Part shown: piece by piece, positions 2,912-60,583 of the stretch
Layout: every line of letters begins with the position of its first letter
How positions within the stretch are numbered: the stretch's first letter is position 1
Assembly: GCA_023473585.1 (NCBI GenBank)
Contig: JAMCYU010000008.1
Coordinates: 1 to 62,416, forward strand
Direction: 5' to 3'
Length of the DNA: 62,416 nucleotides
DNA from: Patescibacteria group bacterium
Lineage (GTDB): Bacteria; Patescibacteriota; Microgenomatia; JAMCYU01
Made by a program: the position numbers and the translations under genes
The notes under the pieces: generated by a model
The model's input: only the letters and a program-made list of their open reading frames with translations
What the model was told of the DNA's origin: nothing
The model's database searches: none

Positions 2912-3127
2912 TCAAATCCTGGGTTTTTGATCCGGCGGATATGCTGTATTGCTATTTAAGTAGGCTAACTCAGTTGCTTTTGCTAGATCATCAAGATTAT
3001 GGCTTCGCGACGTAAACACAGGAAGCATTTCAGCGCTCAGGCCAATGGGAGGCATACGCACCATTCCTATGCAATAAAATTTATCATCCAGGAAATATAT
3101 AATGACGCTTTTTTTGGCAAAACTCAT
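2912..3127 (-). CDS. Short immunity-like paralog B4 (71 aa from ATG; track lists a TTG-extended 77 aa)
   Basis: MSFAKKSVIIYFLDDKFYCIGMVRMPPIG matches the N-terminal motif of B1-B3 (YY.D..FYVVG.V..PP). It lacks their C-terminal half. Confidence 0.45.
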   Translation of the reverse strand: MSFAKKSVIIYFLDDKFYCIGMVRMPPIGLSAEMLPVFTSRSHNLDDLAKATELAYLNSNTAYPPDQKPRI

Positions 3128-3131
3128 ATGA

Positions 3132-3251
3132 TTACGGTACCTCAACTATAACCAGTGTAACATCTTTTGTTTGCGCGTAATCCTGCATCTCTAAAAGTTC
3201 TTTACTTGTTGCTTCAGTGGCTTTTCCAGCTGAAATTCCTATTTCTATGTA
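3132..3251 (-). pseudogene. Start-less remnant of the toxin-like gene 3' end (copy 3)
   Basis: Translates to YIEIGISAGKATEATSKELLEMQDYAQTKDVTLVIVEVP*. Two in-frame TGA codons lie directly upstream. The 47 nt at 3139-3185 are identical to 4342-4388. Confidence 0.6.
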
Positions 3252-3260
3252 TCATCAAGA

Positions 3261-3749
3261 TCATATCTTCTTATCTGTGTGATATACTTTACTCAAAATT
3301 TCTTCTGCTATATTCTGAGCAGAAAGCGGTGGAAGTAATATTTTTCTCGCGCCATCTATTCCTCTCCACGCCTTTCCTTCTCCCAAATCTGGCTCATTAG
3401 GATCATAGGACTCCTGAGGCGATATTTCCACACTTCCGTCTTCGTACCAATCAACCTCCCATAACTTTGCGGCCTTAGCCCAAACTTTTCCGTAATCTCC
3501 ATCCCATGGCGTCACATCTGTTCTTATTTGGTGTTGAAAATAACGCTCCTTACTTACATCACTTCCTAACCGCGCAGATTCTATGGCCTGTGCTAATTTT
3601 TTACCATCTGAAAACTGTACCATATATACAGGTTCTACCTGACGACAAAAACCAAAAGGCTGGATGCGAACCGACCCCACAACATAAAACTGATCGTCTA
3701 GGTAGTAGACAGAAACCTCGTGAATATTATCACCCCTTGCTTCAATCAT
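3261..3749 (-). CDS. Immunity-like paralog B3 (162 aa)
   Basis: Track ORF. It shares VYYLDDQFYVVGSVRIQPFGF, PWDGD..KVW, LWEVDWYEDGSVE and YDPNEPDLGEGKAWRGI with B1. Confidence 0.65.
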   Translation of the reverse strand: MIEARGDNIHEVSVYYLDDQFYVVGSVRIQPFGFCRQVEPVYMVQFSDGKKLAQAIESARLGSDVSKERYFQHQIRTDVTPWDGDYGKVWAKAAKLWEVDWYEDGSVEISPQESYDPNEPDLGEGKAWRGIDGARKILLPPLSAQNIAEEILSKVYHTDKKI

Positions 3750-3751
3750 AA

Positions 3752-3892
3752 TTATGGCACCTCACAAATAACCAACGTTACATCTTTACTTTGAGCATAG
3801 TTTTGCAATTCCTCCAACTTTTCAATCTGTTCTGGGCTAGCTTTCCCTGCAGGAATACCAATCTCTACATATCTATCTTGAAAATTTTCTTC
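3752..3892 (-). pseudogene. Start-less remnant of the toxin-like gene 3' end (copy 2)
   Basis: Translates to EENFQDRYVEIGIPAGKASPEQIEKLEELQNYAQSKDVTLVICEVP*. It has no start codon and ends 2 nt before the B3 ATG. Confidence 0.65.
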
Positions 3893-3893
3893 T

Positions 3894-4331
3894 TTACAGC
3901 TGTTTTAATATCTCCCTGGCAATATCTTTTGTAGAAACGGGTGGAGAGAATGTTTTTTCTGAAATTGTTTTCCATTGCATATCTCCCCTATACATTTTAT
4001 CGGGGTTTTCAGTATCCATATCAACGCTTCCATCTTCCTTCCACCATAAAGACCATAACTTTAAGGCGTGGTTCCACACCCTGTTTTTTTCTCCATCCCA
4101 TGGTTTTATTTCTAGATTTGCATGGTCCGGGTCAAAATGAGATTTACTTACTATGTGAGCTGAATCGATTGCTTGAGAGAGTTTTTCAATACTGAAATCT
4201 TGTAATTTTATCACAGGGTTAACATGTGCCCAGACAAAAATAGGTGGAAGCTCTACCGAACCAACCACATAAAGAATTCTATTAAATAAGTAAATGGATA
4301 CATGATGATACGTTTTTTTAATTTCAACCAT
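3894..4331 (-). CDS. Immunity-like paralog B2 (145 aa)
   Basis: Track ORF. It has YLFNRILYVVGSVELPPIFVW, KPWDGEKNRVW and WWKEDGSVDM. Its C-terminus SPPVSTKDIAREILKQL is identical to that of B1. Confidence 0.65.
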   Translation of the reverse strand: MVEIKKTYHHVSIYLFNRILYVVGSVELPPIFVWAHVNPVIKLQDFSIEKLSQAIDSAHIVSKSHFDPDHANLEIKPWDGEKNRVWNHALKLWSLWWKEDGSVDMDTENPDKMYRGDMQWKTISEKTFSPPVSTKDIAREILKQL

Positions 4332-4334
4332 AGA

Positions 4335-4475
4335 TTATGGCACCTCAACTATAACCAGTGTAACATCTTTTGTTTGCGCGTAATCCTGTAGTTCATAAAG
4401 CTTTTCAATCTGTTCTGGGCTAGCTTTCCCTGCAGGAATACCAACTTCTAAATATCTATCTTGAAAATTTTCTTC
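4335..4475 (-). pseudogene. Start-less remnant of the toxin-like gene 3' end (copy 1)
   Basis: Translates to EENFQDRYLEVGIPAGKASPEQIEKLYELQDYAQTKDVTLVIVEVP*. It ends 3 nt before the B2 ATG. Confidence 0.65.
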
Positions 4476-4476
4476 T

Positions 4477-4935
4477 TCACAGCTGTTTTAATATCTCCCT
4501 AGCAATATCTTTTGTAGAAACGGGTGGAGATAAATGTTTCTTGGCACCCTTTATACTCCTCCAAGCCTTACCTTCTCCCAAATCTGGTTCATTAGGATCG
4601 TAGGGTTCATCAAGCGACATGTCCACACTTCCGTCTTCATTCCACCATATTGACCACGATTTTGAAGAATTATTCCAAACTCTTTCATGTTCTCCGTCCC
4701 ACGGTTTTATTTCTGGGTTTGCATGATCAGGATGAAAGCGTGACTTACTTATCAGTCGAGCCACCCCTATAGCATCCGCAAGTTTATCTCTATTGTGGTT
4801 TTTTACTGTAATAATAGGATTTACTTGCCTCCACACAAAAATAGGTGGCATTTCGACCGCCCCCACAACGTAAAACATGTCACTGAAATAATAGACAAGG
4901 ACAAGGTGGGCTGTTTTTTTTATTGGCTCAGTCAT
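4477..4935 (-). CDS. Immunity-like paralog B1 (152 aa from MTEPIKK; track lists 164 aa from 4971)
   Basis: Track ORF. The start at 4935 avoids overlap with the upstream stop at 4949-4951. It has the same motifs as B2 and B3. Confidence 0.65.
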   Translation of the reverse strand: MTEPIKKTAHLVLVYYFSDMFYVVGAVEMPPIFVWRQVNPIITVKNHNRDKLADAIGVARLISKSRFHPDHANPEIKPWDGEHERVWNNSSKSWSIWWNEDGSVDMSLDEPYDPNEPDLGEGKAWRSIKGAKKHLSPPVSTKDIAREILKQL

Positions 4936-4948
4936 ATTTATTATTTTA

Positions 4949-5383
4949 TTATGGCACCTCCACGATGACAAGTGTTACATCTCGACTTTGTGCATAATCT
5001 TGTAATTCATGAAGCTTGGCAGTCTGTTCTGGGTTGGTTCTTCCTGCAGGAATACCTAGCTCTAAATACCTGTCCTGAAAATTACGCCCTCTTTCAAAAA
5101 CCATATCTTTCCATCGTCCATAAGTAAATCCACTAAGTTCATCAATATATTTTCTCACTGTCGAATCAACTTCTCTTATATCTTGATATGATTTTAGTGC
5201 TAAGTCAAGCGTCTTCATGCTTGTTGCTGTCATTGCATCAATAACGATATCATCAACTACGGGACAGTTACTACCCAAATTAGCCCTACGCAACTGTTCG
5301 TAATCATGTCCACGTGCATCTATTCCTTTTTCGCTCCACAAAGTATCTCTATGTAGTTTAGTTTGCAATTCGTCATGACTCAT
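4949..5383 (-). CDS. Small toxin-like protein A, possible PD-(D/E)xK nuclease fold (144 aa)
   Basis: Track ORF. GHDYE...PVVDD...TSMK gives an E/D/SxK arrangement. Its last 47 codons are the parent of the three remnants. It sits directly upstream of the immunity-like array. The family assignment is not verified. Confidence 0.5.
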   Translation of the reverse strand: MSHDELQTKLHRDTLWSEKGIDARGHDYEQLRRANLGSNCPVVDDIVIDAMTATSMKTLDLALKSYQDIREVDSTVRKYIDELSGFTYGRWKDMVFERGRNFQDRYLELGIPAGRTNPEQTAKLHELQDYAQSRDVTLVIVEVP

Positions 5384-5500
5384 ACTAAACCAATGTGGTC
5401 GTTCTTTTGTTTGCTCTTTCTCTGGTCGATTTCCACGCCCACCGTCGCCTGCAGATTTTGATGCAACATCTCATCTTCTAAATAAAAACCAAACGCTTTA

Positions 5501-6335
5501 TCACATCTTGGGGTATGAATATAATGCAGGGACAACTTGAATATCTCCTCTTTCAACACTCTCTTTTAAGGTATTTTGCAGAGCTTTGAAATGAGAATAT
5601 TGAATAATTGTCTTTAAAGCACTTAAATAAATATTGCCTGTATTTGGAACGACTAGATCGACATTTCTATCAATATTCGCAAAAGCTATGCCTTTTCCAT
5701 TAATCGTTATGGCCGGACTTTTAATGTCGGGGTTACTGTTTCCCATAAAAACAAGCAGGCTTTTGTTTTTAGCTACAAATTCCCTAAAATATCTTGTGGT
5801 GTATCCCATGAATGATTCGTAACCTGCTAAATCCCTTGTTAATTCTGATCTTTTTTGAGCTTCTGCCGAAACTACACTAGTAATATCAATATTCGCATCG
5901 GGTCGTTTTTCGGTAATGGTTATCCCTCGATTTAACGCTGATAAATCTAATCTTGCAATTAGATCATCATAAAAGGATTTTCTTGCTTTACCAATCTGCC
6001 TGCGTAAAGTAGGATTATCTCTTAATTCTTGGCTTCGTTTATATTGTTTATCATAAGGAATGGTTAAATTATCCCTAATTATTAAGTAGGCTAAGGCATG
6101 TAGAATAAAAAACTCACTAAAAGGTGCCCACCAAAGATCTCATTGACTCTATAAAATTAGAGACTTTAATGTCATCTGGAGCTAAAAAATCCCCATATGG
6201 AATTTTATCCCAAGATATTAAGAGATTATTGTCTCTATAGACTAACCTTCTTTCTTCTCTACCCTTTTCCCTATAGTTTTGCGCAGGCAAAAGATCTGTT
6301 ATCGCTCTGTTTGGCTGTGTTTCAGTAATACTCAT
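5501..6335 (-). pseudogene. Frameshifted gene: track ORFs 6117-6335 and 5501-5809 plus ~210 start-less open codons between them
   Basis: The frame of the 102-aa ORF stays open upstream to 6139 without any ATG, GTG or TTG. It overlaps the end of the 72-aa ORF. Removing one base from the T4 run (plus-strand A4 at 6119-6122) joins them into ~277 codons (...SLVGTF|SEFFILHALAYLIIRDN...). Confidence 0.5.
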
Positions 6336-6513: not shown

Positions 6514-6948
6514 TTATCTGGTCTTTGCGCCAGGCGGCAATTGGGAAATGAAAATATCTGTACTTGGGAGACAATCTTTAAAATTAATTTTTTCTGGCTT
6601 AAACCATTTAAAATCTCGATTCTCTTGATTAGCAATTTTGGGTTGTCCTCTAATAATTTGAGTCAAATAACACAAAAGGATACCGTGATAAATCATTTTA
6701 TCGGTCCTAAAAACATAAGAGGTAAGAAAAGGCGTTTTCGTCAAGATCCTAACTTCCACGCCCAATTCCTCTTTAAGCTCTGTTACCAGCCTTTCTTCGG
6801 GATTATCACCGAATTCTAAATGTCCCCCAGGAATGCCCCATTTTCCATCCCAAATCGGAAATTCTTGTTCATTTCTCTGGGTGAGCAGGACTTCGTTATT
6901 TTTATTTAGCGACCAAAAGTACGCCATATTCAAAAAAACCCGTTTCAA
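6514..6948 (-). CDS. NUDIX hydrolase
   Basis: Nudix box GGHLEFGDNPEERLVTELKEELGVEV. Confidence 0.85.
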   Translation of the reverse strand: MKRVFLNMAYFWSLNKNNEVLLTQRNEQEFPIWDGKWGIPGGHLEFGDNPEERLVTELKEELGVEVRILTKTPFLTSYVFRTDKMIYHGILLCYLTQIIRGQPKIANQENRDFKWFKPEKINFKDCLPSTDIFISQLPPGAKTR

Positions 6949-6994
6949 AACGGGGAAAGACTAGTTTAAAATGACGACTAAAAATCCTTTTTTG

Positions 6995-7423
6995 TTAAGT
7001 TTGTTTTAATTTTTTCTCTATAAAATAAAAAAGCTCTTCCGCATCAAAAAGGGCCTGTTCTGTTTCCTCTTTTGAATAATCAATAATGGCATCAGCCGGA
7101 TACTTCGTTTCAATGAAATATTCGTTAAGTATTTTACATTGTTTTTCGAATTGCAAAAAATCCCGATCTTTATCCACGCACATTGTCAAAAGCAAAGGAA
7201 GAATATGAATTTTAGGAAGAAATTCCAACCCTTTGGCTAAAAGATAGGCTTTAAGAGCCTTCTCGGTTGCTTGATGGCAAAAATAACATGTCGTATCCGT
7301 ATAACCGCCATGACGATTATTCAAAAATCCCGTATCAAGATCACGCCTGGCTTTTAATAGCCAATCTTCATAATATTTAGATTCGCGAAACTTTTTCTTC
7401 ACAGAAAAGCTTTGCTTAACCAT
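6995..7423 (-). CDS. HEPN domain protein (toxin half of a HEPN/MNT pair)
   Basis: 142 aa and helical, with CHQATEKALKAYLL and a KYP motif. It overlaps the upstream nucleotidyltransferase gene by 8 nt. Confidence 0.75.
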   Translation of the reverse strand: MVKQSFSVKKKFRESKYYEDWLLKARRDLDTGFLNNRHGGYTDTTCYFCHQATEKALKAYLLAKGLEFLPKIHILPLLLTMCVDKDRDFLQFEKQCKILNEYFIETKYPADAIIDYSKEETEQALFDAEELFYFIEKKLKQT

Positions 7424-7763
7424 ACAGAACTTTACCTTTTTGGAGAATTTCGCTTATAAAAACATTGCCCCTGTTGATTTCGTACTCTACCTCCGAGGGA
7501 GTATAAATCAAAAAATCTACGGGGATATTTTGGGCAGGAAGACATGACCAAGCTTCTGTAGCTCTTTTTCCCAATCTGCTCACTAAAGTTTTTTTGATCA
7601 AGAAAAGATCTATGTCATTACTTTGGGTTTTAGAATCAATCATACTACCGAAGAGAATGATCTTTTCCGGCTTGTAGCCCTTTTTAAGAGCAGCTACTAT
7701 TTGAGGAAGTTTTTTAAGATAATCTTCCTTTCTACTCGCGGAGAAACTTTGCTTCTTTAGCAT
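7416..7763 (-). CDS. Minimal nucleotidyltransferase (MNT) domain protein
   Basis: Signature ILFGSMIDSKTQSNDIDLFLI (GS..D.D). Paired with the HEPN gene. Confidence 0.8.
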   Translation of the reverse strand: MLKKQSFSASRKEDYLKKLPQIVAALKKGYKPEKIILFGSMIDSKTQSNDIDLFLIKKTLVSRLGKRATEAWSCLPAQNIPVDFLIYTPSEVEYEINRGNVFISEILQKGKVLYG

Positions 7764-53685: not shown

Positions 53686-56208
53686 CTAATTACCTCCGAT
53701 TTGTTGATTTAACCATTGATTGGTCTTATCAATTTGGTATGCCAAACGGTATTCCTCAAGCGCCCTTAACGTCTCACCCCTGGTAAAATACATCTTCCCC
53801 AGGGTTACATGTTGACGGAAAAGAAAATATTTATTATCCGTCTTTGGTCTTAAGTCTTTCATGGCTTCGATATTTTTGCTCGTGGTCGCCTGATAAAGAC
53901 TTTTTGGGGCGGAAAACTCTAAAAAAGGGTGGTTGTCGGTATTTTCTTTGGCTCCCTGAATAAACTTAACTATGCCTTCTTGACCCAACGCTAAATAGCT
54001 TAAAAACTGTTCGGCACTTTCAATGAAAATCCGCCCAAATTCATTTTTGATAAGTTTCTGCTCTAATTTCTGGCTGATTAAATCAGCATCTAAATTTATC
54101 GGTTCCTGACTGCCCAAGAGCAGCAAATCGTAAGAAGAAAGATTGTCCCAAACAGTAGTATAGGGAAAAACCGATTGAAAAGTCTTAATCTCCGTTTTTA
54201 AATCGTCTGTTTTAAGACTGTAAAGTTGAATCCAGTGGGCAAAAATGCCACCCTTATTAAGACGTTTTTTCGCCAACTCAAAATACTCTTTGGTGAAAAG
54301 TTTAGAATTTCCCGACAGCCAAATATTCGAAGGTTCGGAAGTAATCACATCGTATTTTTCCGTTCCTTTCAAAAGATAATTTCTACCGTCCCCTGTCACC
54401 ACTTTTAGTCTTTGGTCTTCTATGGCCCGATGGTTTACCTCACTGAAATATTTATTGGCTTCAATAATGGCTGGTTCAATTTCCACCGCCTCGATATTTT
54501 TGGCCGGAAATTGTTCAACAGAACCTAGGGTTATCCCTGATCCTAACCCAACCACCAAGACATCTTCTGGATTAGGATGTAAGATCATCGGTAATGCTCC
54601 TGAGAGAACCTGTGTGTCAATATCCAAACCGGTTGAAGCATCGGTTTTCCCGTCAATGCGCAAAAAAACCTGCGCCCCGAGTTTTTTAACGGCCACTGTT
54701 ACCTCAATCCCTTCCCGATAATAAAGAAAGTCGGAGCCCTGCATTCTTTTTTCGGCTTGCTCTTGGCTGTCTTGGATGAAAAAACGCCAATTGGCATATG
54801 GCCCGGAAACTAAAAAATGTTTGTTCCATAATGGCCATAAATAACCAATCAAAAGAATGACTAAGATAACAAAAGAGATCAAAATTCTCGGAAAACTTCG
54901 CTTGTCTTTGACAATAAGCCAAACTGCCAAAAAAAGATAAATCGCTGCCATCAGCCAAATTCCCTTCTGGACGCCGATTCGAGGAATCAGGAAAAAACCG
55001 GCTAATAAGGAACCAAAGACGCCTCCTAGGGTATTAGCCGCGTAAAGACTGCCGACTGACCAACCGACTAATTTTTCTTCTTCCTGATAGAATTTAATAC
55101 CCAAGGGCAAAAGCAAACCCATAACCAAAGTCGCCAGAAACATAAGAAAAAAGGAAAGGATAAATTGCCAAAAAAGAATCGACCCAAAAGAAGTGTAGCT
55201 GGTTTTGATTATTTCCAAAAGGAAAAAGGGTATCTTTTCAAAAAGAGGGATGCTAAAGATTATCCATGTGCCTAAAATCGCTAAAAAAACGGCCAGCCAA
55301 ATTTGGCTAAATTTCTTTCCCCATTGGCGAAAAATAAGACTCCCGATGGCAATCCCTAATAAGAAACTGACTAAAACCGTCGCAAAAGCATATATCGAAG
55401 CACCGAAAAATAAAATTAAAGTTCTCGTCCAAAAAACCTCCATGGCCAAACCTGCCAAACCAGTCAGGAAAAAAACTCCCAAAAGAAAATAATTTGTGTG
55501 AAGACTATCAGGGACTATGTTCGGCCGCTTGCCAGCGATTTTTCTGTCTTCACTTGATACTTGATACTTACTACATAATACTAATATCGTGATACCGATA
55601 ATTAAATTTATACCCGCGGCCAGCCAGATGGTTTCACGAACGCCCAAAAAAGCAATCAGAAAAAACCCGGCTAAAAAAGCCCCCATGACGGCGCCCAAAG
55701 TATTGATAAAATATAAAAAACTTACCCCCTCCCCTATTTCCTGATCTTTAAGAAGAAATTTCGCGATCACCGGCAAAGTTCCACCCATCAGGATTGTTGG
55801 TAAAATCAAAGCCAAAAAACTTAAAAGAAATGTCAAAAATTGAAAACCATAAAAAGATGAACCGATATTTTGGCCAACAAGAACCTGCAATCTTTCGACG
55901 AATTTAAAAATTAAAGGAGTTAAAAAAGCATATAAACCTATTCCTAATTCTAGAAATGCGTAAAGTTTTAGGGAATTCTCTTTTTGATCGATAATTCGGC
56001 CAAAAAAAAAGCTGCCCAAGGCTAAACCGCAAAAAAAGATAGCCAAAACAGAAGCGGTTGCGTAAGCAGTTGTCCCGAAAACCAAAGCCAGCTGCCTTTG
56101 CCAAACAACCTGATAGGTTAGGGCGCAAAAACCGGAAAGGAAAAAGAAGAGAACCAAAAGTCTTCGTAAGTTAATCATCGTAATTATAAACTTATAACAA
56201 CTTGCCAT
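53686..56208 (-). CDS. Fused polytopic membrane / spermidine-synthase-like / TPR protein (840 aa)
   Basis: ~14 TM helices, then VLVVGLGSGITLG and DVITSEPSN (aminopropyltransferase/MTase fold), then TPR-like repeats. An alternative start at M11 (56178) would remove the overlap. Confidence 0.75.
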   Translation of the reverse strand: MASCYKFIITMINLRRLLVLFFFLSGFCALTYQVVWQRQLALVFGTTAYATASVLAIFFCGLALGSFFFGRIIDQKENSLKLYAFLELGIGLYAFLTPLIFKFVERLQVLVGQNIGSSFYGFQFLTFLLSFLALILPTILMGGTLPVIAKFLLKDQEIGEGVSFLYFINTLGAVMGAFLAGFFLIAFLGVRETIWLAAGINLIIGITILVLCSKYQVSSEDRKIAGKRPNIVPDSLHTNYFLLGVFFLTGLAGLAMEVFWTRTLILFFGASIYAFATVLVSFLLGIAIGSLIFRQWGKKFSQIWLAVFLAILGTWIIFSIPLFEKIPFFLLEIIKTSYTSFGSILFWQFILSFFLMFLATLVMGLLLPLGIKFYQEEEKLVGWSVGSLYAANTLGGVFGSLLAGFFLIPRIGVQKGIWLMAAIYLFLAVWLIVKDKRSFPRILISFVILVILLIGYLWPLWNKHFLVSGPYANWRFFIQDSQEQAEKRMQGSDFLYYREGIEVTVAVKKLGAQVFLRIDGKTDASTGLDIDTQVLSGALPMILHPNPEDVLVVGLGSGITLGSVEQFPAKNIEAVEIEPAIIEANKYFSEVNHRAIEDQRLKVVTGDGRNYLLKGTEKYDVITSEPSNIWLSGNSKLFTKEYFELAKKRLNKGGIFAHWIQLYSLKTDDLKTEIKTFQSVFPYTTVWDNLSSYDLLLLGSQEPINLDADLISQKLEQKLIKNEFGRIFIESAEQFLSYLALGQEGIVKFIQGAKENTDNHPFLEFSAPKSLYQATTSKNIEAMKDLRPKTDNKYFLFRQHVTLGKMYFTRGETLRALEEYRLAYQIDKTNQWLNQQIGGN

Positions 56209-59200
56209 TTATTTTAATGACTGCCAAATGAATTTGCAATCGCCTTTTTTGCCACCACTCGATCACCTTAGGCAAGAAGATCGCCATCGGTATAAAAAGC
56301 AGGGCTTTTTCCGGCGCTGCCGGAGCAGTAACTTCGTAAGTTATAAAAGCAGTAAGTCCGCCAAGTTTATCCACATTAACCGGGAGATCAATATTCATGT
56401 AATATGCCCTTATATTTCCACTAAGACCTGTTCCTGACGAAGCTGCTAGATTTGATGCATCCTGAAAAGTGGAAACGCTAAGGTTCTCTCCCGTTGTCTG
56501 ATTTAGAGGACCATACCCAACAGTATCGGCCACTTGTACAAAAGCATACGTCGCACTCGTATAGAAAATTTCGAAATTTCCTTCAGCTCCTGATGAACGC
56601 TTTGTCGTCGAAGATTCGGGAATATAAGTATTAAATGTAAAACTTGGATCAGAAGTGCTTTTTGCCGTTTCTTGCCCAACAAACCAATTCACCGTTTTTA
56701 TACCCGTATATGTACCGCTTGTAGGAATTACGAAGTTATAAGAAACAATTAGTTCCGCTCCTACCGCATAAGTCTCATTAATTTTATCTCCTAAAGCTTC
56801 AACCGTCACCGTGTCCCCGGTTTGCCAATTAGTACTAAAGTTACTGGAAATATCAATAAAAATCACATTTCTCCCTGCTTGTTGGGTGACTACTGTTGCG
56901 TAATAAGTACTCGCCGAAGGATATTCGACTGCTGTGCCACCGGTTATTGTTACTCGGTAACGCGTGTTAGCCGCAGCTGTGTTTGTCCCCACAATTTTTA
57001 AATAAGCATTGTAATTGGAGAGTGAGCTTTCGGGTAAATAAACCGCTGGTGCGCCGATTTGAGTATAAGTTATAGGTAAAGCTCCGCTTAGCTGACCAAC
57101 ATGATATTTAGCCGTATTGCGATGAGTTGTACTTGTTTGGTTGTAATAACTATAAGTATAGGTAATAAGCAGTTCTCCCCCCTTAAGGTTCATTACCTGC
57201 GCGTTATTATAAGAAATGATGGTGTTAGAGGCTTTGTAGTTTAATTGACCAAGAGCAGCTCCATCGGCCACAACTCCTACCGGTTCGTACATGGCGACAA
57301 AATCCATTGTTGTTTTGTTGGCTCCGTCTATAAAAGTAAAAACTGCCGAAGCGCCTCCAACCGGCAATATTTTTGGATTTGTAATTGGCTGATTGTTATT
57401 TATTTCTCCTCTAATTTGAGCGTCTGTTGTACCAGCGGAAACTTGACCAACATACTCCACCCAGGCCTTTTGGATAGTGATATTGGCCTCTTGCAGATTG
57501 GGATTAAGTGTACTTGTCAAAGTATCAGTCGAACCCGAACTAGATTGACTATTCTTGGTTTGTAAGGCGTATCTGACGGTTTTTACTTGCGTTGTTACCG
57601 TATCATCATATTCGTAAGTCACGATTAATTTAGCAGAATCAGTATTGTGAGTTTGGTTAACATAGGCGTTAAAATTATAAGTATTATTTCCTTGAGCGAC
57701 CTCGCTGGTTACATCCATACGAATAATAAAAGGTTGACTTTCACCAGAGTTTGTATTTATAGTGGTAAGTGATTGAGTTATGAAACTGTTAGTTCCCCGA
57801 CGGAACTTCATCTCACCGGCCGTTACATTATTAGCCGAAAGAATAAACCGCCATTCAACATAAGCATGACAGGGATTCGTCCCGGTAGTTCCGGTTAAGC
57901 AATCAACCATTGTTTCTGGAATATCTAAAGAAAATTGCGGCCCATTGGAAGAACTATAAGTTCCGGCATCAATCCCTTGAGTAGCCGTAATATCCGTTGC
58001 GCTGGCATATTGATAAATTGGCATTTCAATGGTCTTAATTTGGGTCCCCGGGGAAGCAAGGGCAAGAGGAACTTTGAAAGATAGCCAAGAAAGGTTCATG
58101 GATAAAATCAAAAGTACAGCTAGGGTAGTTTTTGCCAGCCACCTGATTTTCCTGCGCCTGATGGTAAAATGACCAAACCGGTTATTGGCTGTTTTTAAGG
58201 CCAAATAGGGATTGGAGCTGGAAATTAGATATGGTAATTGGGAATTAGTTTTTAATTCTTGAGTGCTTAATGCTTCATGCTCCATGCTTAATGAAGGTTT
58301 AAATCCCGGCAATATCCCTGAAATCCATCGGTAGAATCTCCCTCGTTGTAGGACATCGGTAATCATGCCTGTCTTGGGGGTTCTAAACCAAGGCCCTTCT
58401 TCTTTTTCGATAAAGCCCTTAACCGAGGCGTAGGCCTGAAAAGGAACGAGAAGATAAGAAAGTACCACAAATGAGAGTATCCCTAAATAGTCTTTCTCCT
58501 CACTCTCCTCCAGGAAAAGACCCACGGTATTGACTAGGGGTAAGGAGAACATGTTGGTTAAAACCAGAGACCAACCCCAAAGAGCCGTCCAGAAAGGGAG
58601 CCTGGCTTTAAAGATGGCTTCAGAGACAAACCAGCAAAAGGTCCCCAAAAGAAAAAAGGTGGCCTGGAGATAATAGGGAGACATAAAGAGAAACTCAAGT
58701 TTCTCCATGTAGGTAAGGTTGGAAGAACCTAAGAGTTTACCAAACATTTTCCTAACGTTAAAGGAATGACCCTCGGCCCAACGCATCCGCTGGCGGACTA
58801 ACCTCTTGATCGTCGAGACACATTCGGCCGGACCTTGAATGTAAGGAGTGTAGATGACCTTGTAACCCTGTTCGTAAAGACGCAGGGTTAGTTGGAAGTC
58901 TTCGGTAATTGAGGTTAACCAGCCGAGCTTTTTTAAGACATCCATCCTGATCATATAGACAGAGCCGGCGATCTGCTTTAAACCCCCGTAGACCTCGGCC
59001 CCTGACCTCTCAACGACATAAGATCCCGCGTACTCGCTTCTTACCCCCCTCGTAATCCAGTTCTCTGATTTGTTAAGAACGTGCCACTGGTAACCCTGGA
59101 TGGCCGCAACGGGTGAGTTTTGGTTCCTCCCTTGGTGACTAAATTCCTGATTCCTAATATCAAAGTTAAGTGTTCCGCAGACCGCTTGGAAGTACTTTAA

Positions 59201-60583
59201 GAATTGGGTGATGGTGTCAGGATAAGGCACAAAGTCGGAGTCAAAAACCAAGACAAACTCGGTTCTTGGGTCGGTAATCTTCATCGCCTCTTTAAGGGCC
59301 CCTCCCTTGTAGCCTTCCCTTGATTCCCGGTGAATAAGTTTGACTTTGGGATGATTCTTCCAGTCCGCAAGAATACTGGTGGTTTCATCATTGGAATCAT
59401 CAATAACGATAACCTCGTAGTTTTGGTAATCCATACTGGTGCAGGCCGAGAGAAGTCTGTTAACGACCTTCTTCTCGTTATACATGGGTAAATGAATGGA
59501 AACAAAGGGAGATCTTTGGAGAATCACTCCTTCTAGGTTGGGTTGTAATCCACCAACATATCCTTTCCGCAGACCAGAAGCACTATCTAAACCAACAAAC
59601 CTAAAAAGAAATCTCATCAACCACGACCGCTTCCTCGTTCCTGATTCCTGATTCTCTCCTTCTTGTCCGATATGACGAGAGAACCCTAAGACTATCGCCA
59701 AGGTTAAATAGTATTTAAGCGAGTAAAGGAAGAAAACCGAACCGGAAAATAAAGCGATTGAAGCAAAGATTAAGCCCAACTTATTCTCTTGAGGAACCTG
59801 ACTATAGATCCTCAACCAAGCTAAAAGAAGATAACTTATAGGGGCGGAAAAACCGAAGCCAAAGAAGAAGGACTTAAATATATTTTTAAAATTTGGCGGT
59901 GGTGCTGGTGCCAAAGAAGGCATAAAGGCTTCAAAAACCGTTCTGATTCTATTAATATTGGCGGTCGCAAGTTGAACAAGGGAGTTTGAGGTATGGGTTT
60001 TAGCGTAAGCAAGGCGCTGACAATAATAAGACAGGTTAAATCTTCTCAAGATGTTTTGCACGCCATGATTGCCCAAAATTGGCTTACCATTTATTTGAGG
60101 TAAACAAGCAACGATTTTATGCGTTGAAAGCTCTGGATATTTAATGACTAGTGTCAAAATTGTCTTTTCAACTAGCCGGGGAGTTTGATGATAATATTTT
60201 TCTCTTTTGGGAATTTTATCCCAGAGAGCTCCCGTTTTTTCTCCAAGCGGAGCCTGCTCATAACGATTTTTCCAACGATAAAAGATCGTACGGGAGATAC
60301 CGTATTCTTGACAAATTTCGGCCACGGGTTTACCAGTAAGTTTTTTTTCGATCGTCGCTAGCCGCTCTTTTGGAGAAAGCAGTTTTCTGGGGATTTTCGC
60401 ATTGTGAAAAAGCGGTTTAAGTGAACTAATTTTAAGGTTATTTTCTTTATATCTTTTTAACCATCGGTAAAAAAGAACGCGGGAGATTCCGGCTTCCCGA
60501 GCAAGCCTAGTAGCTTCTTCATTTTTATTTAAGAAGCGCTTAATAAGACTTAATCTTTGTTTTACAGTCAGTTTAGCTCTCAT
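56192..60583 (-). CDS. Fusion protein: two transposase-type HTH domains, a processive GT2 (QxxRW), a ~640-aa Thr/Ser/Asn-rich ectodomain and a C-terminal TM anchor (1463 aa)
   Basis: One continuous ORF. HTH motifs: GISRVLFYRWLKRY and GISRTIFYRWKNRY. GT2 motifs: LPMYNEKKV, VIDDSND, FDSDFVP and RQRMRWAEG. The C-terminus is APAAPEKALLFIPMAIFLPKVIEWWQKRR. Confidence 0.8.
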   Translation of the reverse strand: MRAKLTVKQRLSLIKRFLNKNEEATRLAREAGISRVLFYRWLKRYKENNLKISSLKPLFHNAKIPRKLLSPKERLATIEKKLTGKPVAEICQEYGISRTIFYRWKNRYEQAPLGEKTGALWDKIPKREKYYHQTPRLVEKTILTLVIKYPELSTHKIVACLPQINGKPILGNHGVQNILRRFNLSYYCQRLAYAKTHTSNSLVQLATANINRIRTVFEAFMPSLAPAPPPNFKNIFKSFFFGFGFSAPISYLLLAWLRIYSQVPQENKLGLIFASIALFSGSVFFLYSLKYYLTLAIVLGFSRHIGQEGENQESGTRKRSWLMRFLFRFVGLDSASGLRKGYVGGLQPNLEGVILQRSPFVSIHLPMYNEKKVVNRLLSACTSMDYQNYEVIVIDDSNDETTSILADWKNHPKVKLIHRESREGYKGGALKEAMKITDPRTEFVLVFDSDFVPYPDTITQFLKYFQAVCGTLNFDIRNQEFSHQGRNQNSPVAAIQGYQWHVLNKSENWITRGVRSEYAGSYVVERSGAEVYGGLKQIAGSVYMIRMDVLKKLGWLTSITEDFQLTLRLYEQGYKVIYTPYIQGPAECVSTIKRLVRQRMRWAEGHSFNVRKMFGKLLGSSNLTYMEKLEFLFMSPYYLQATFFLLGTFCWFVSEAIFKARLPFWTALWGWSLVLTNMFSLPLVNTVGLFLEESEEKDYLGILSFVVLSYLLVPFQAYASVKGFIEKEEGPWFRTPKTGMITDVLQRGRFYRWISGILPGFKPSLSMEHEALSTQELKTNSQLPYLISSSNPYLALKTANNRFGHFTIRRRKIRWLAKTTLAVLLILSMNLSWLSFKVPLALASPGTQIKTIEMPIYQYASATDITATQGIDAGTYSSSNGPQFSLDIPETMVDCLTGTTGTNPCHAYVEWRFILSANNVTAGEMKFRRGTNSFITQSLTTINTNSGESQPFIIRMDVTSEVAQGNNTYNFNAYVNQTHNTDSAKLIVTYEYDDTVTTQVKTVRYALQTKNSQSSSGSTDTLTSTLNPNLQEANITIQKAWVEYVGQVSAGTTDAQIRGEINNNQPITNPKILPVGGASAVFTFIDGANKTTMDFVAMYEPVGVVADGAALGQLNYKASNTIISYNNAQVMNLKGGELLITYTYSYYNQTSTTHRNTAKYHVGQLSGALPITYTQIGAPAVYLPESSLSNYNAYLKIVGTNTAAANTRYRVTITGGTAVEYPSASTYYATVVTQQAGRNVIFIDISSNFSTNWQTGDTVTVEALGDKINETYAVGAELIVSYNFVIPTSGTYTGIKTVNWFVGQETAKSTSDPSFTFNTYIPESSTTKRSSGAEGNFEIFYTSATYAFVQVADTVGYGPLNQTTGENLSVSTFQDASNLAASSGTGLSGNIRAYYMNIDLPVNVDKLGGLTAFITYEVTAPAAPEKALLFIPMAIFLPKVIEWWQKRRLQIHLAVIKINGKLL

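Follow-up and report, generated by a model that had tools for sequence, protein, structure and literature searches.

We analysed a stretch of 62,416 nucleotides (nt) from contig JAMCYU010000008.1 (assembly GCA_023473585.1; Patescibacteria group bacterium, Microgenomatia, JAMCYU01), hereafter the window, which carries on its minus strand an array of toxin-derived fragments and immunity-like genes. All features are numbered on the forward strand. An earlier note, made from the letters of this stretch alone, had described the order A, B1, a', B2, a'', B3, a''', B4 and read it as a toxin/immunity cassette array. Order and coordinates are as described there, except that B4 is truncated, and the reading agrees with the membership of A in the EC869 CdiA-CT family and with the predicted CdiI fold of B. 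Much is known of toxin/immunity warfare in Proteobacteria and Firmicutes; to our knowledge it has hardly been studied in bacteria of the Candidate Phyla Radiation (CPR), which are ultra-small and mostly episymbiotic. The named family records described below come from metagenome-assembled genomes (MAGs) of Woesebacteria, Gottesmanbacteria and Chisholmbacteria, that is, from Microgenomates within the CPR; the loci of relatives are designated L001-L021, and proteins of the family carry P-numbers (P0016, P0049-P0076).

At its 5' end the array opens with a start-less toxin linker remnant (5384-5470), recognised from its translation, which is in frame with A and has an in-frame TGA (5471-5473) on its 5' side; its 14 codons at 5384-5425 (..EKEQTKERPHWFS) are homologous to the full-length toxins of relatives and include no start codon. 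Gene A (4949-5383) encodes 144 amino acids (aa) from an internal ATG, matches a Pfam toxin family and has intact catalytic residues. Thirteen nt further on lies B1 (4477-4935; 152 aa; loop type DEPYDPNEPDLGEGKAW), which starts with ATG, a TTG at 4971 being an alternative further upstream, and which has a predicted CdiI-EC869-like fold. There follow a' (4335-4475), a toxin tail without a start codon (NFQDRYLEVGIPAGKASPEQIEKLYELQDYAQTKDVTLVIVEVP, then stop); B2 (3894-4331; 145 aa; loop type PDKMYRGDMQW); a'' (3752-3892), again a start-less tail; B3 (3261-3749; 162 aa), the most divergent B; a''' (3132-3251), a shorter tail with a degraded 5' part; and B4 (2912-3127; 71 aa), a 5' fragment only. 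Here "tail", or stub, denotes the last ~40-45 codons of the toxin gene. The three start-less pieces were found by tblastn as matches to the C-terminus of A (E=1e-19, 5e-19 and 1e-10 for a', a'' and a'''), and B2 and B3 by tblastn with B1. In B4, residues 12-71 of B1 align to 3106-2927 (E=6e-12); homology stops after the 71-codon fragment, with nothing beyond in the tblastn search, and the array ends there, an unrelated 515-aa gene beginning at 2870.

The repeat structure is regular. Each tail stops 2-4 nt before the ATG of the next B, and the three tails translate in frame to ..(NFQDRY)..DVTLVI.EVP followed by a stop. A repeat search returned four tail copies (including the end of A) at a spacing of 583-620 nt, together with a 200-nt block that is 88% alike between 3751-3950 and 4334-4533. 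The repeat runs into the 3' end of the preceding B gene, as had been claimed (54 of 59 nt identical between 4477-4535 and 3894-3952), and 3139-3185 is identical to 4342-4388 at all 47 positions, with no extension on either side. Since the same array is also present in a second NCBI assembly, GCA_023380895.1, and in one Logan contig, and since four further independent loci hold analogous arrays, it is not an assembly artefact.

The toxin domain and the adjacent immunity genes

A is a Zn-DNase domain of the EC869/TA271 type, with a PD-(D/E)xK fold, as found at the C-terminus of CdiA proteins (CdiA-CT) from systems of contact-dependent growth inhibition (CDI). It matches PF21111 (CDI_toxin_EC869_like) with E=3.5e-11 and 43.9 bits (cut-off 27) over profile positions 24-122 of 123, and 27 of 50 relatives match the same family. 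Against PDB sequences, a single-sequence search with A found nothing relevant and a profile was required: the profile of 50 A relatives reaches 4G6U_A (E=2.2e-9) and the YPIII toxin 4ZQU_A (E=3.5e-5), and it does so up to the C-terminal residue. The arrangement GHDYE / PVVDD / TSMK, previously noted as compatible with a PD-(D/E)xK nuclease, aligns to the EC869 catalytic residues, with E29 (GHDYE), D44 (VVDD), S55 and K57 (both TSMK) of A opposite Glu177, Asp198, Ser209 and Lys211 of 4G6U_A, which form the active site of the Zn-dependent EC869/TA271 DNase (PMC9086364). The AlphaFold model of P0016, a full-length relative that is 65% identical to A over the domain, has a predicted local distance difference test score (pLDDT) of 88.5 and retrieves 4g6u_A (E=1.5e-8) and 4zqu_A (E=3.6e-6; template-modelling score, TM, 0.72; root-mean-square deviation 2.8 Å) in Foldseek. 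In this model a beta-hairpin at residues 464-474 (strands 464-467 and 470-474) stands immediately before the tail, and the corresponding hairpin of A is intact (GRWKDMVFER). By its family and residues A would be an active and toxic DNase.

For B1, the AlphaFold2 model (pLDDT 87.5; predicted TM score 0.84) has as its top two Foldseek matches 4g6u_B and 4zqw_B, both CdiI-EC869 (probability 0.99 and 1.00; TM 0.51 and 0.64), all remaining PDB matches lying at TM ~0.2. As modelled, B1 is thus an immunity protein with a CdiI-EC869-like predicted fold, and it is probably the cognate of A. Toxin and B genes are adjacent in at least eight independent loci, in L006, L003, L012, L015, L019 and L021 in the same manner as in the window. 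The B family is small, with 47 representatives at E<=1e-3 among 1.84 billion; B has no Pfam, NCBIfam or PADLOC family, and a scan of GTDB genomes for B relatives found none.

In the known complex, a toxin beta-hairpin that is inserted in the nuclease core goes between two CdiI hairpins (PMC9086364), and B would most likely neutralise the DNase in the same way, by clamping the protruding hairpin through beta-augmentation. The variable loop of B1 (~110-125) is the low-confidence part of its model, as would be expected for a segment that becomes ordered on binding, and the class of the toxin hairpin co-varies with the class of this loop in eight of nine adjacent pairs. The short hairpin GRWKDMVFER goes with the B loop ..PYDPNEPDLGEGKAW, the long hairpin GRWSWTDKETDRHYDFER with ..PDKMYRGDMQW, and a third hairpin class with ..PYVKHRNGVEW. 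A and B1 belong to the first class, of which B3 is a divergent member; B2 has the second loop, which elsewhere accompanies long-hairpin toxins, and the window holds no such toxin.

At L019 (1492-2359), a toxin whose hairpin (GVWKDMIFER) is nearly that of A stands next to a B with the other loop type, KPGRMYKKAVEW, on an otherwise B1-like body, and this B is a chimeric immunity gene. I211, a ~200-aa domain, is usually encoded 3' of B (L003 4680-5315, L019 2377-2955, L021 3590-4162) and is fused to the C-terminus of B at L001 (4592-5668) and L013 (635-1717); it could be a second immunity protein, perhaps against the carrier domain X described below, or an accessory protein. Neither I211 nor a 113-aa alternative immunity protein has a Pfam, NCBIfam or PADLOC family, and the genes of both were sought across the window and not found.

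Carrier X and the truncation of A

The toxin had previously been thought to stand alone, with no delivery domain; its relatives contradict this. Only six close homologs of A have 163-201 aa, and all of them carry a ~50-residue N-terminal extension (..TTVEADPEGAAAYLRALK..); their genes lie directly behind, and overlap, a gene of ~310-335 aa for a domain that we call X. In other loci, from Microgenomates MAGs, X (~330 aa, N-terminal), a linker and the nuclease are joined in a single 500-594-aa protein; the linker, ..V(S/T)PSPEAAA.F.K.., has the motif PSPEAAA..LK and not VENN. When the 520-aa toxin of L006 was compared with the window by tblastn, its residues 365-520 aligned to 5425-4952 only, and no match to the X domain was found by tblastn anywhere in the window. 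Because homology continues upstream of the ATG of A without a start codon, and because the window holds no X, A is an N-terminally truncated, orphan 3' fragment of a toxin gene, in which the nuclease domain is complete and whose ATG is in frame by chance. A Shine-Dalgarno motif is present at 14 of the 36 genes in the window; most of these genes lack one, and the motif is therefore uninformative on the expression of A.

Unrelated C-termini are likewise found on X and its PSPEAAA linker, comprising at least four other domains (proteins P0049-P0076), among them a ..RIDIATxxNVAIECKNF.. domain, His-rich HNH-like ends (..PHYHPNGHGKAHVFY and ..PHIHIGPIDHIPV) and a Cys...His peptidase-like end. A constant X and linker joined to interchangeable C-termini is the defining architecture of polymorphic toxins (sensu Zhang et al. 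2012), and the second characteristic of such toxins is found as well, namely an immunity gene directly 3' of the toxin together with orphan toxin-tip/immunity cassettes. Inter-cellular delivery of the full-length toxin is assumed by analogy, and the toxin would then be exported.

X itself has no Pfam, NCBIfam, PADLOC or PDB relative, a PDB fold search included, and PF21111 is the only Pfam domain in the carrier proteins of 500-594 aa. Its invariant residues, a His, a Glu, an Arg-Asn pair and a His, suggest an enzyme, possibly a releasing peptidase; X is a candidate for a new trafficking or releasing module. X is also found behind ankyrin repeats or behind UQ_con and a membrane segment. The pattern EPH...E...RN...GxGH tentatively hints that X may belong to the TIKI/TraB/erythromycin-esterase superfamily; searches for support gave only one weak TraB_PrgY_gumN match among 50 members (E=0.18) and no PDB fold match.

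Compared with CdiA-CT/CdiI of E. coli EC869 o11 (= TA271) and Y. pseudotuberculosis YPIII (4G6U, 4ZQU, 4ZQW), the window family has the same toxin domain by profile and fold, the same E/D/SxK active site with a hairpin inserted in the PD-(D/E)xK core, the same (for B, predicted) immunity fold, and likewise a toxin gene directly followed by its immunity gene. Unlike CDI, it has no CdiA filament, CdiB, VENN motif or filamentous haemagglutinin repeats, the carrier being the unrelated ~330-aa X with its PSPEAAA linker; B and CdiI share no detectable sequence similarity; and the hosts are Microgenomates/CPR rather than Proteobacteria. A well-characterised pair, the EC869 DNase and a CdiI-like clamp, appears to have been recruited in Microgenomates onto a completely different, uncharacterised carrier that bears interchangeable toxin tips.

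Toxin tails and the assembly of the array

In the P0016 model NFQDRY comes directly after the hairpin, and the tail comprises the last strand, helix and strand of the nuclease core (480-488, 494-509, 513-519). Since the tail begins after the hairpin, the stubs lack all four catalytic residues as well as the specificity hairpin. Arrays of the form B-tail-B recur in L003, L012 and L013, and a tail starting at NFQDRY, within a few nt of the stop of the upstream B, is found twice in the window and also in L003 and L013. L003 has the order toxin, B, second immunity gene fused to a dead toxin fragment, B, tail, B, tail, B, I211, identical in three samples. The fusion is a 241-aa open reading frame (ORF; L003 2331-3056) in which a second-type immunity protein, homologous to the 113-aa gene 3' of the toxin in L002 and L016, is joined in frame to an EC869-like toxin fragment that has RxE in place of the catalytic SxK; here an orphan toxin tip has been inactivated and fused to the immunity gene before it.

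The description of the tails as decayed fits only a''' in its 5' part, where two in-frame stops occur, and does not fit the others: six of seven orphan tails have neither stop nor frameshift in their toxin-homologous part, the exception being the 5' edge of a'''. Orphan tails differ from one another 123:106:329 times at codon positions 1:2:3, the tails of intact toxins 99:66:242 times; 59% of the orphan-tail substitutions fall at third positions, dN/dS (the ratio of nonsynonymous to synonymous substitution rates) lies between 0.03 and 0.34, and the two sets cannot be told apart by this pattern. Divergence of this coding type must have accrued mostly under coding constraint, either while the tails were part of working toxin genes or because such genes kept converting them. 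At the nucleotide level, the tail and the active-site region are the two most conserved stretches of the toxin domain, with a mean pairwise identity of 0.66-0.74 in the tail versus 0.57-0.61 in the hairpin region. We discounted frameshifting or readthrough from the upstream B as a general way of translating the tails, since their frame relative to that B varies between loci (+1 in the window and in L013; in frame behind a stop, with GTG, in L003).

The tails are mosaics. Across the junctions B1|a' and B2|a'' (the last 59 nt of B, the junction and the first 75 nt of the tail), only 6 of 133 positions differ, an identity of ~95%; beyond this block, a' and a'' differ at 19 of 63 positions (70% identity; maximum chi-squared permutation p~5e-4). 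Between a' and a''', 27 of 66 positions differ in the 5' part (59% identical) and 2 of 51 in the 3' part (96%; p~5e-4). Significant breakpoints thus lie inside the tails, recombination is detectable, and the earlier supposition that the units exchange sequence holds. Covariation with the downstream B is seen for the last 60 nt of the tail (14 cassettes; Mantel r=0.36, p=0.011) and not for its 5' part (r=-0.12, same cassettes). Genome of origin does not group the B genes. B1 shares 69% identity with a B gene of L012 (L012_Bb), 66% with one of L003 and 62% with one of L006, and two B genes of L003 match B2 at 78% (L003_Bd) and 75%, whereas identities within the window are 59, 50 and 38% (B2 versus B1 59%, B2 versus B3 38%); B3 is at most 51% identical to any B found. 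That B paralogs resemble B genes from other genomes more than those beside them argues against plain duplication in situ, a line of reasoning that Kirchberger et al. (2017, PMC5361080) applied to Vibrio cholerae arrays.

Known immunity arrays offer partial parallels. Orphan cdiA-CT/cdiI and rhs-CT/rhsI modules of CDI and Rhs systems are thought to be displaced ancestral pairs that serve as an extra source of immunity (PMC9086364); they likewise consist of start-less toxin fragments and intact immunity genes, behind a main toxin gene or without one. These orphans, however, keep the whole toxin domain and an upstream constant piece (VENN or PxxxxDPxGL) that allows recombination into the main gene, so that only A resembles them; a', a'' and a''' keep the post-hairpin part alone, with no catalytic residues. 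The earlier observation that the extreme 3' end of the toxin is what has been retained is therefore accurate and sets the stubs apart from CDI orphans, whose retained part begins with the VENN pre-toxin motif (PMC9086364). In Vibrio cholerae, sequential displacement of effectors of the type VI secretion system has produced orphan immunity arrays whose members are closest to genes of other strains, the old effector being removed and its immunity gene kept, and at least once the 3' end of the effector stayed behind too (PMC5361080). Those arrays are anchored by homology upstream of the module, the downstream join is illegitimate and effector stubs are occasional, whereas in the window every orphan follows a stub of near-constant extent, genomes share the junction position and the breakpoints fall within the stub, which suggests that the stub itself is the homology block. 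Non-identical immunity paralogs in tandem esaG and tipC arrays of type VII secretion systems recombine via short similar blocks, so that the array expands and contracts (Garrett et al. 2022, PMC9484751); those blocks lie inside the immunity genes, and here one block is a toxin-gene remnant between them. The window array thus differs from known ones in its carrier domain, its host clade, the near-constant dead stub between all cassettes and the breakpoints within that stub. A full-text literature search of incomplete coverage found no description of such a system in CPR bacteria.

Taken together, we consider it likely that a polymorphic-toxin system left this region behind as an orphaned remnant, with an immunity bank built by recombination via the toxin tail and the 3' end of B. 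The full system, as seen in relatives, is a ~520-aa protein of X, linker and Zn-dependent DNase, followed by a CdiI-like B; the toxin in the window has lost X, linker and native start, leaving A, B1, B2, B3 and a truncated B4. Once a first B|tail junction existed, each B body would be flanked by homology blocks, the tail upstream and the B 3' end with the next tail downstream, and homologous recombination with other loci or with incoming DNA would insert, replace, duplicate or delete cassettes. Such events could displace the resident toxin and leave its tail, a catalytically dead stub, with the older immunity gene. The array, if expressed, would serve as a bank of immunity alleles against the toxin variants of neighbours, outlasting the decapitated resident toxin.

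Other origins and functions must be weighed against this reconstruction. The earlier note implied that the array arose in situ, and tandem amplification of a ~600-nt unit with its left boundary inside the toxin gene, followed by divergence of B and neutral decay of the stubs, would explain the regular 583-620-nt spacing and the in-frame stops in the 5' part of a'''; moreover, the ~95% identity of the two junctions over 133 nt means that at least the junction was copied, not made twice. Yet B1 and B2 reach 69 and 78% identity to B genes of other loci as against 38-59% within the window (in a comparison of few genomes), the tail substitutions resemble those of functional toxins, and the abrupt shifts of identity within tails demand later exchange. 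An ancestral duplication may have made the first junction, and is insufficient on its own for the present state; we regard amplification in situ as quite unlikely. If the tails were instead kept solely as expression signals for B (a Shine-Dalgarno sequence, possibly a promoter or a messenger RNA stabiliser), with recombination incidental, one would understand why the last tail codons place GAGGTG or GAGGT 8-10 nt before the start codons of B2, B3 and B4 (in a', GAGGTG 9 nt before the B2 ATG), and why the same tail ending is conserved in every locus. A Shine-Dalgarno sequence covers only ~10-15 nt, however, so that GAGGTG accounts for keeping the last ~15 nt and not 130 (the tails span 120-140 nt). 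Promoter-like sites between 2600 and 6400 number 10, versus 12.0 +/- 3.2 in shuffled sequences, with none conserved between tails; counts in the promoter/terminator scan of this region were not above those in shuffles. Most genes of this genome lack the motif, and the codon-position bias would be left unexplained. As a sole cause this is unlikely; the two ideas are compatible, and expression signals in the tail do not preclude their use in recombination.

The main functional rival is an intracellular role, as a toxin-antitoxin module or in anti-phage abortive infection, in which A would be active from its internal ATG, B1 would be the antitoxin and B2-B4 spares or decoys, with no delivery from cell to cell. 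A does have an ATG and the full catalytic set, the family yielded no signal peptide, secretion system or known trafficking domain, small stand-alone toxin genes (163-201 aa) exist in relatives, and a HEPN/MNT pair lies 1.6 kb upstream; nothing specific backs this role, though. The stand-alone relatives are always behind and overlapping an X gene and have a linker that is absent from A, homology extends upstream of the ATG of A without a start codon, no PADLOC defence-system match was obtained, and swappable C-termini on X and linker together with divergent immunity strings with stubs are hallmarks of polymorphic toxins, not of toxin-antitoxin modules (PMC9086364, PMC5361080). We therefore hold an intracellular role to be very unlikely.

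Several observations nonetheless weigh against the recombinational remnant that we favour. The window covers only 62 kb of the genome, and a full-length toxin could lie elsewhere. In the examined loci, X is accompanied by no secretion signal or apparatus and by no conserved neighbour gene. The likeness of B to CdiI is at the level of the fold only, with Foldseek E-values of 0.025-0.036, and a B profile searched against PDB sequences gave spurious weak matches and no CdiI even at E<=10; we therefore file B under a CdiI-like fold and not as a member of the CdiI family. The L019 pair breaks the covariation of hairpin and loop. The Mantel signal is modest and comes from only 14 cassettes, and tails within the window are barely more alike than tails from different loci, so homogenisation is patchy. 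Finally, the coding-type divergence could instead reflect selection acting on the stubs themselves.

A bolder proposal, which we put forward tentatively and think doubtful at present, is that X proteins define an undescribed polymorphic-toxin system of Microgenomates in which the last ~45 codons of the toxin are a dedicated, homology-based capture site. Such a site would act like an integron attachment site in function, but through homology: toxin-immunity DNA from a neighbour would enter by recombination at the tail on one side and at either the 3' end of B or the following tail on the other, and the recipient would gain the neighbour's immunity allele without importing the catalytic part of its toxin. 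Immunity capture of this kind would let orphan banks grow even in genomes without a toxin. What the array displays are immunity cassettes separated by catalytically dead toxin stubs with signs of ongoing recombination. If the stub is a recombination handle, it would offer a simple route to collecting immunity without toxin, and stop-NFQDRY..VEVP-stop-ATG would be a signature for finding such banks in metagenomes.

Neighbouring genes and other features of the window

Upstream of the array, where the X of the toxin should be, sits a 102-aa ORF (5501-5809, minus strand), for which Pfam, NCBIfam and PADLOC gave no family and which matches nothing in the fetched loci of relatives; it may be a trace of the event that truncated the toxin gene. 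The HEPN (6995-7423) and nucleotidyltransferase (7416-7763) genes, both on the minus strand, 1.6 kb upstream of the array, overlap each other and look like a HEPN-MNT toxin-antitoxin module, adjoined by a NUDIX hydrolase gene (6514-6948, minus strand). The flanks of the window show no synteny with the other loci, apart from an unrelated NUDIX similarity, and the stretch with the array and the genes at 6514-7763 may be a small accessory island.

At one end of the window, positions 1-600 have a GC content of 0.52, versus 0.35-0.45 in the next 10 kb, and hold short ORFs only, with no Rfam match at E<=0.01. Towards the other end, a 1463-aa ORF (56192-60583, minus strand) combines N-terminal transposase-type helix-turn-helix domains with a family-2 glycosyltransferase domain, and is either an unusual domain combination or two genes read as one.

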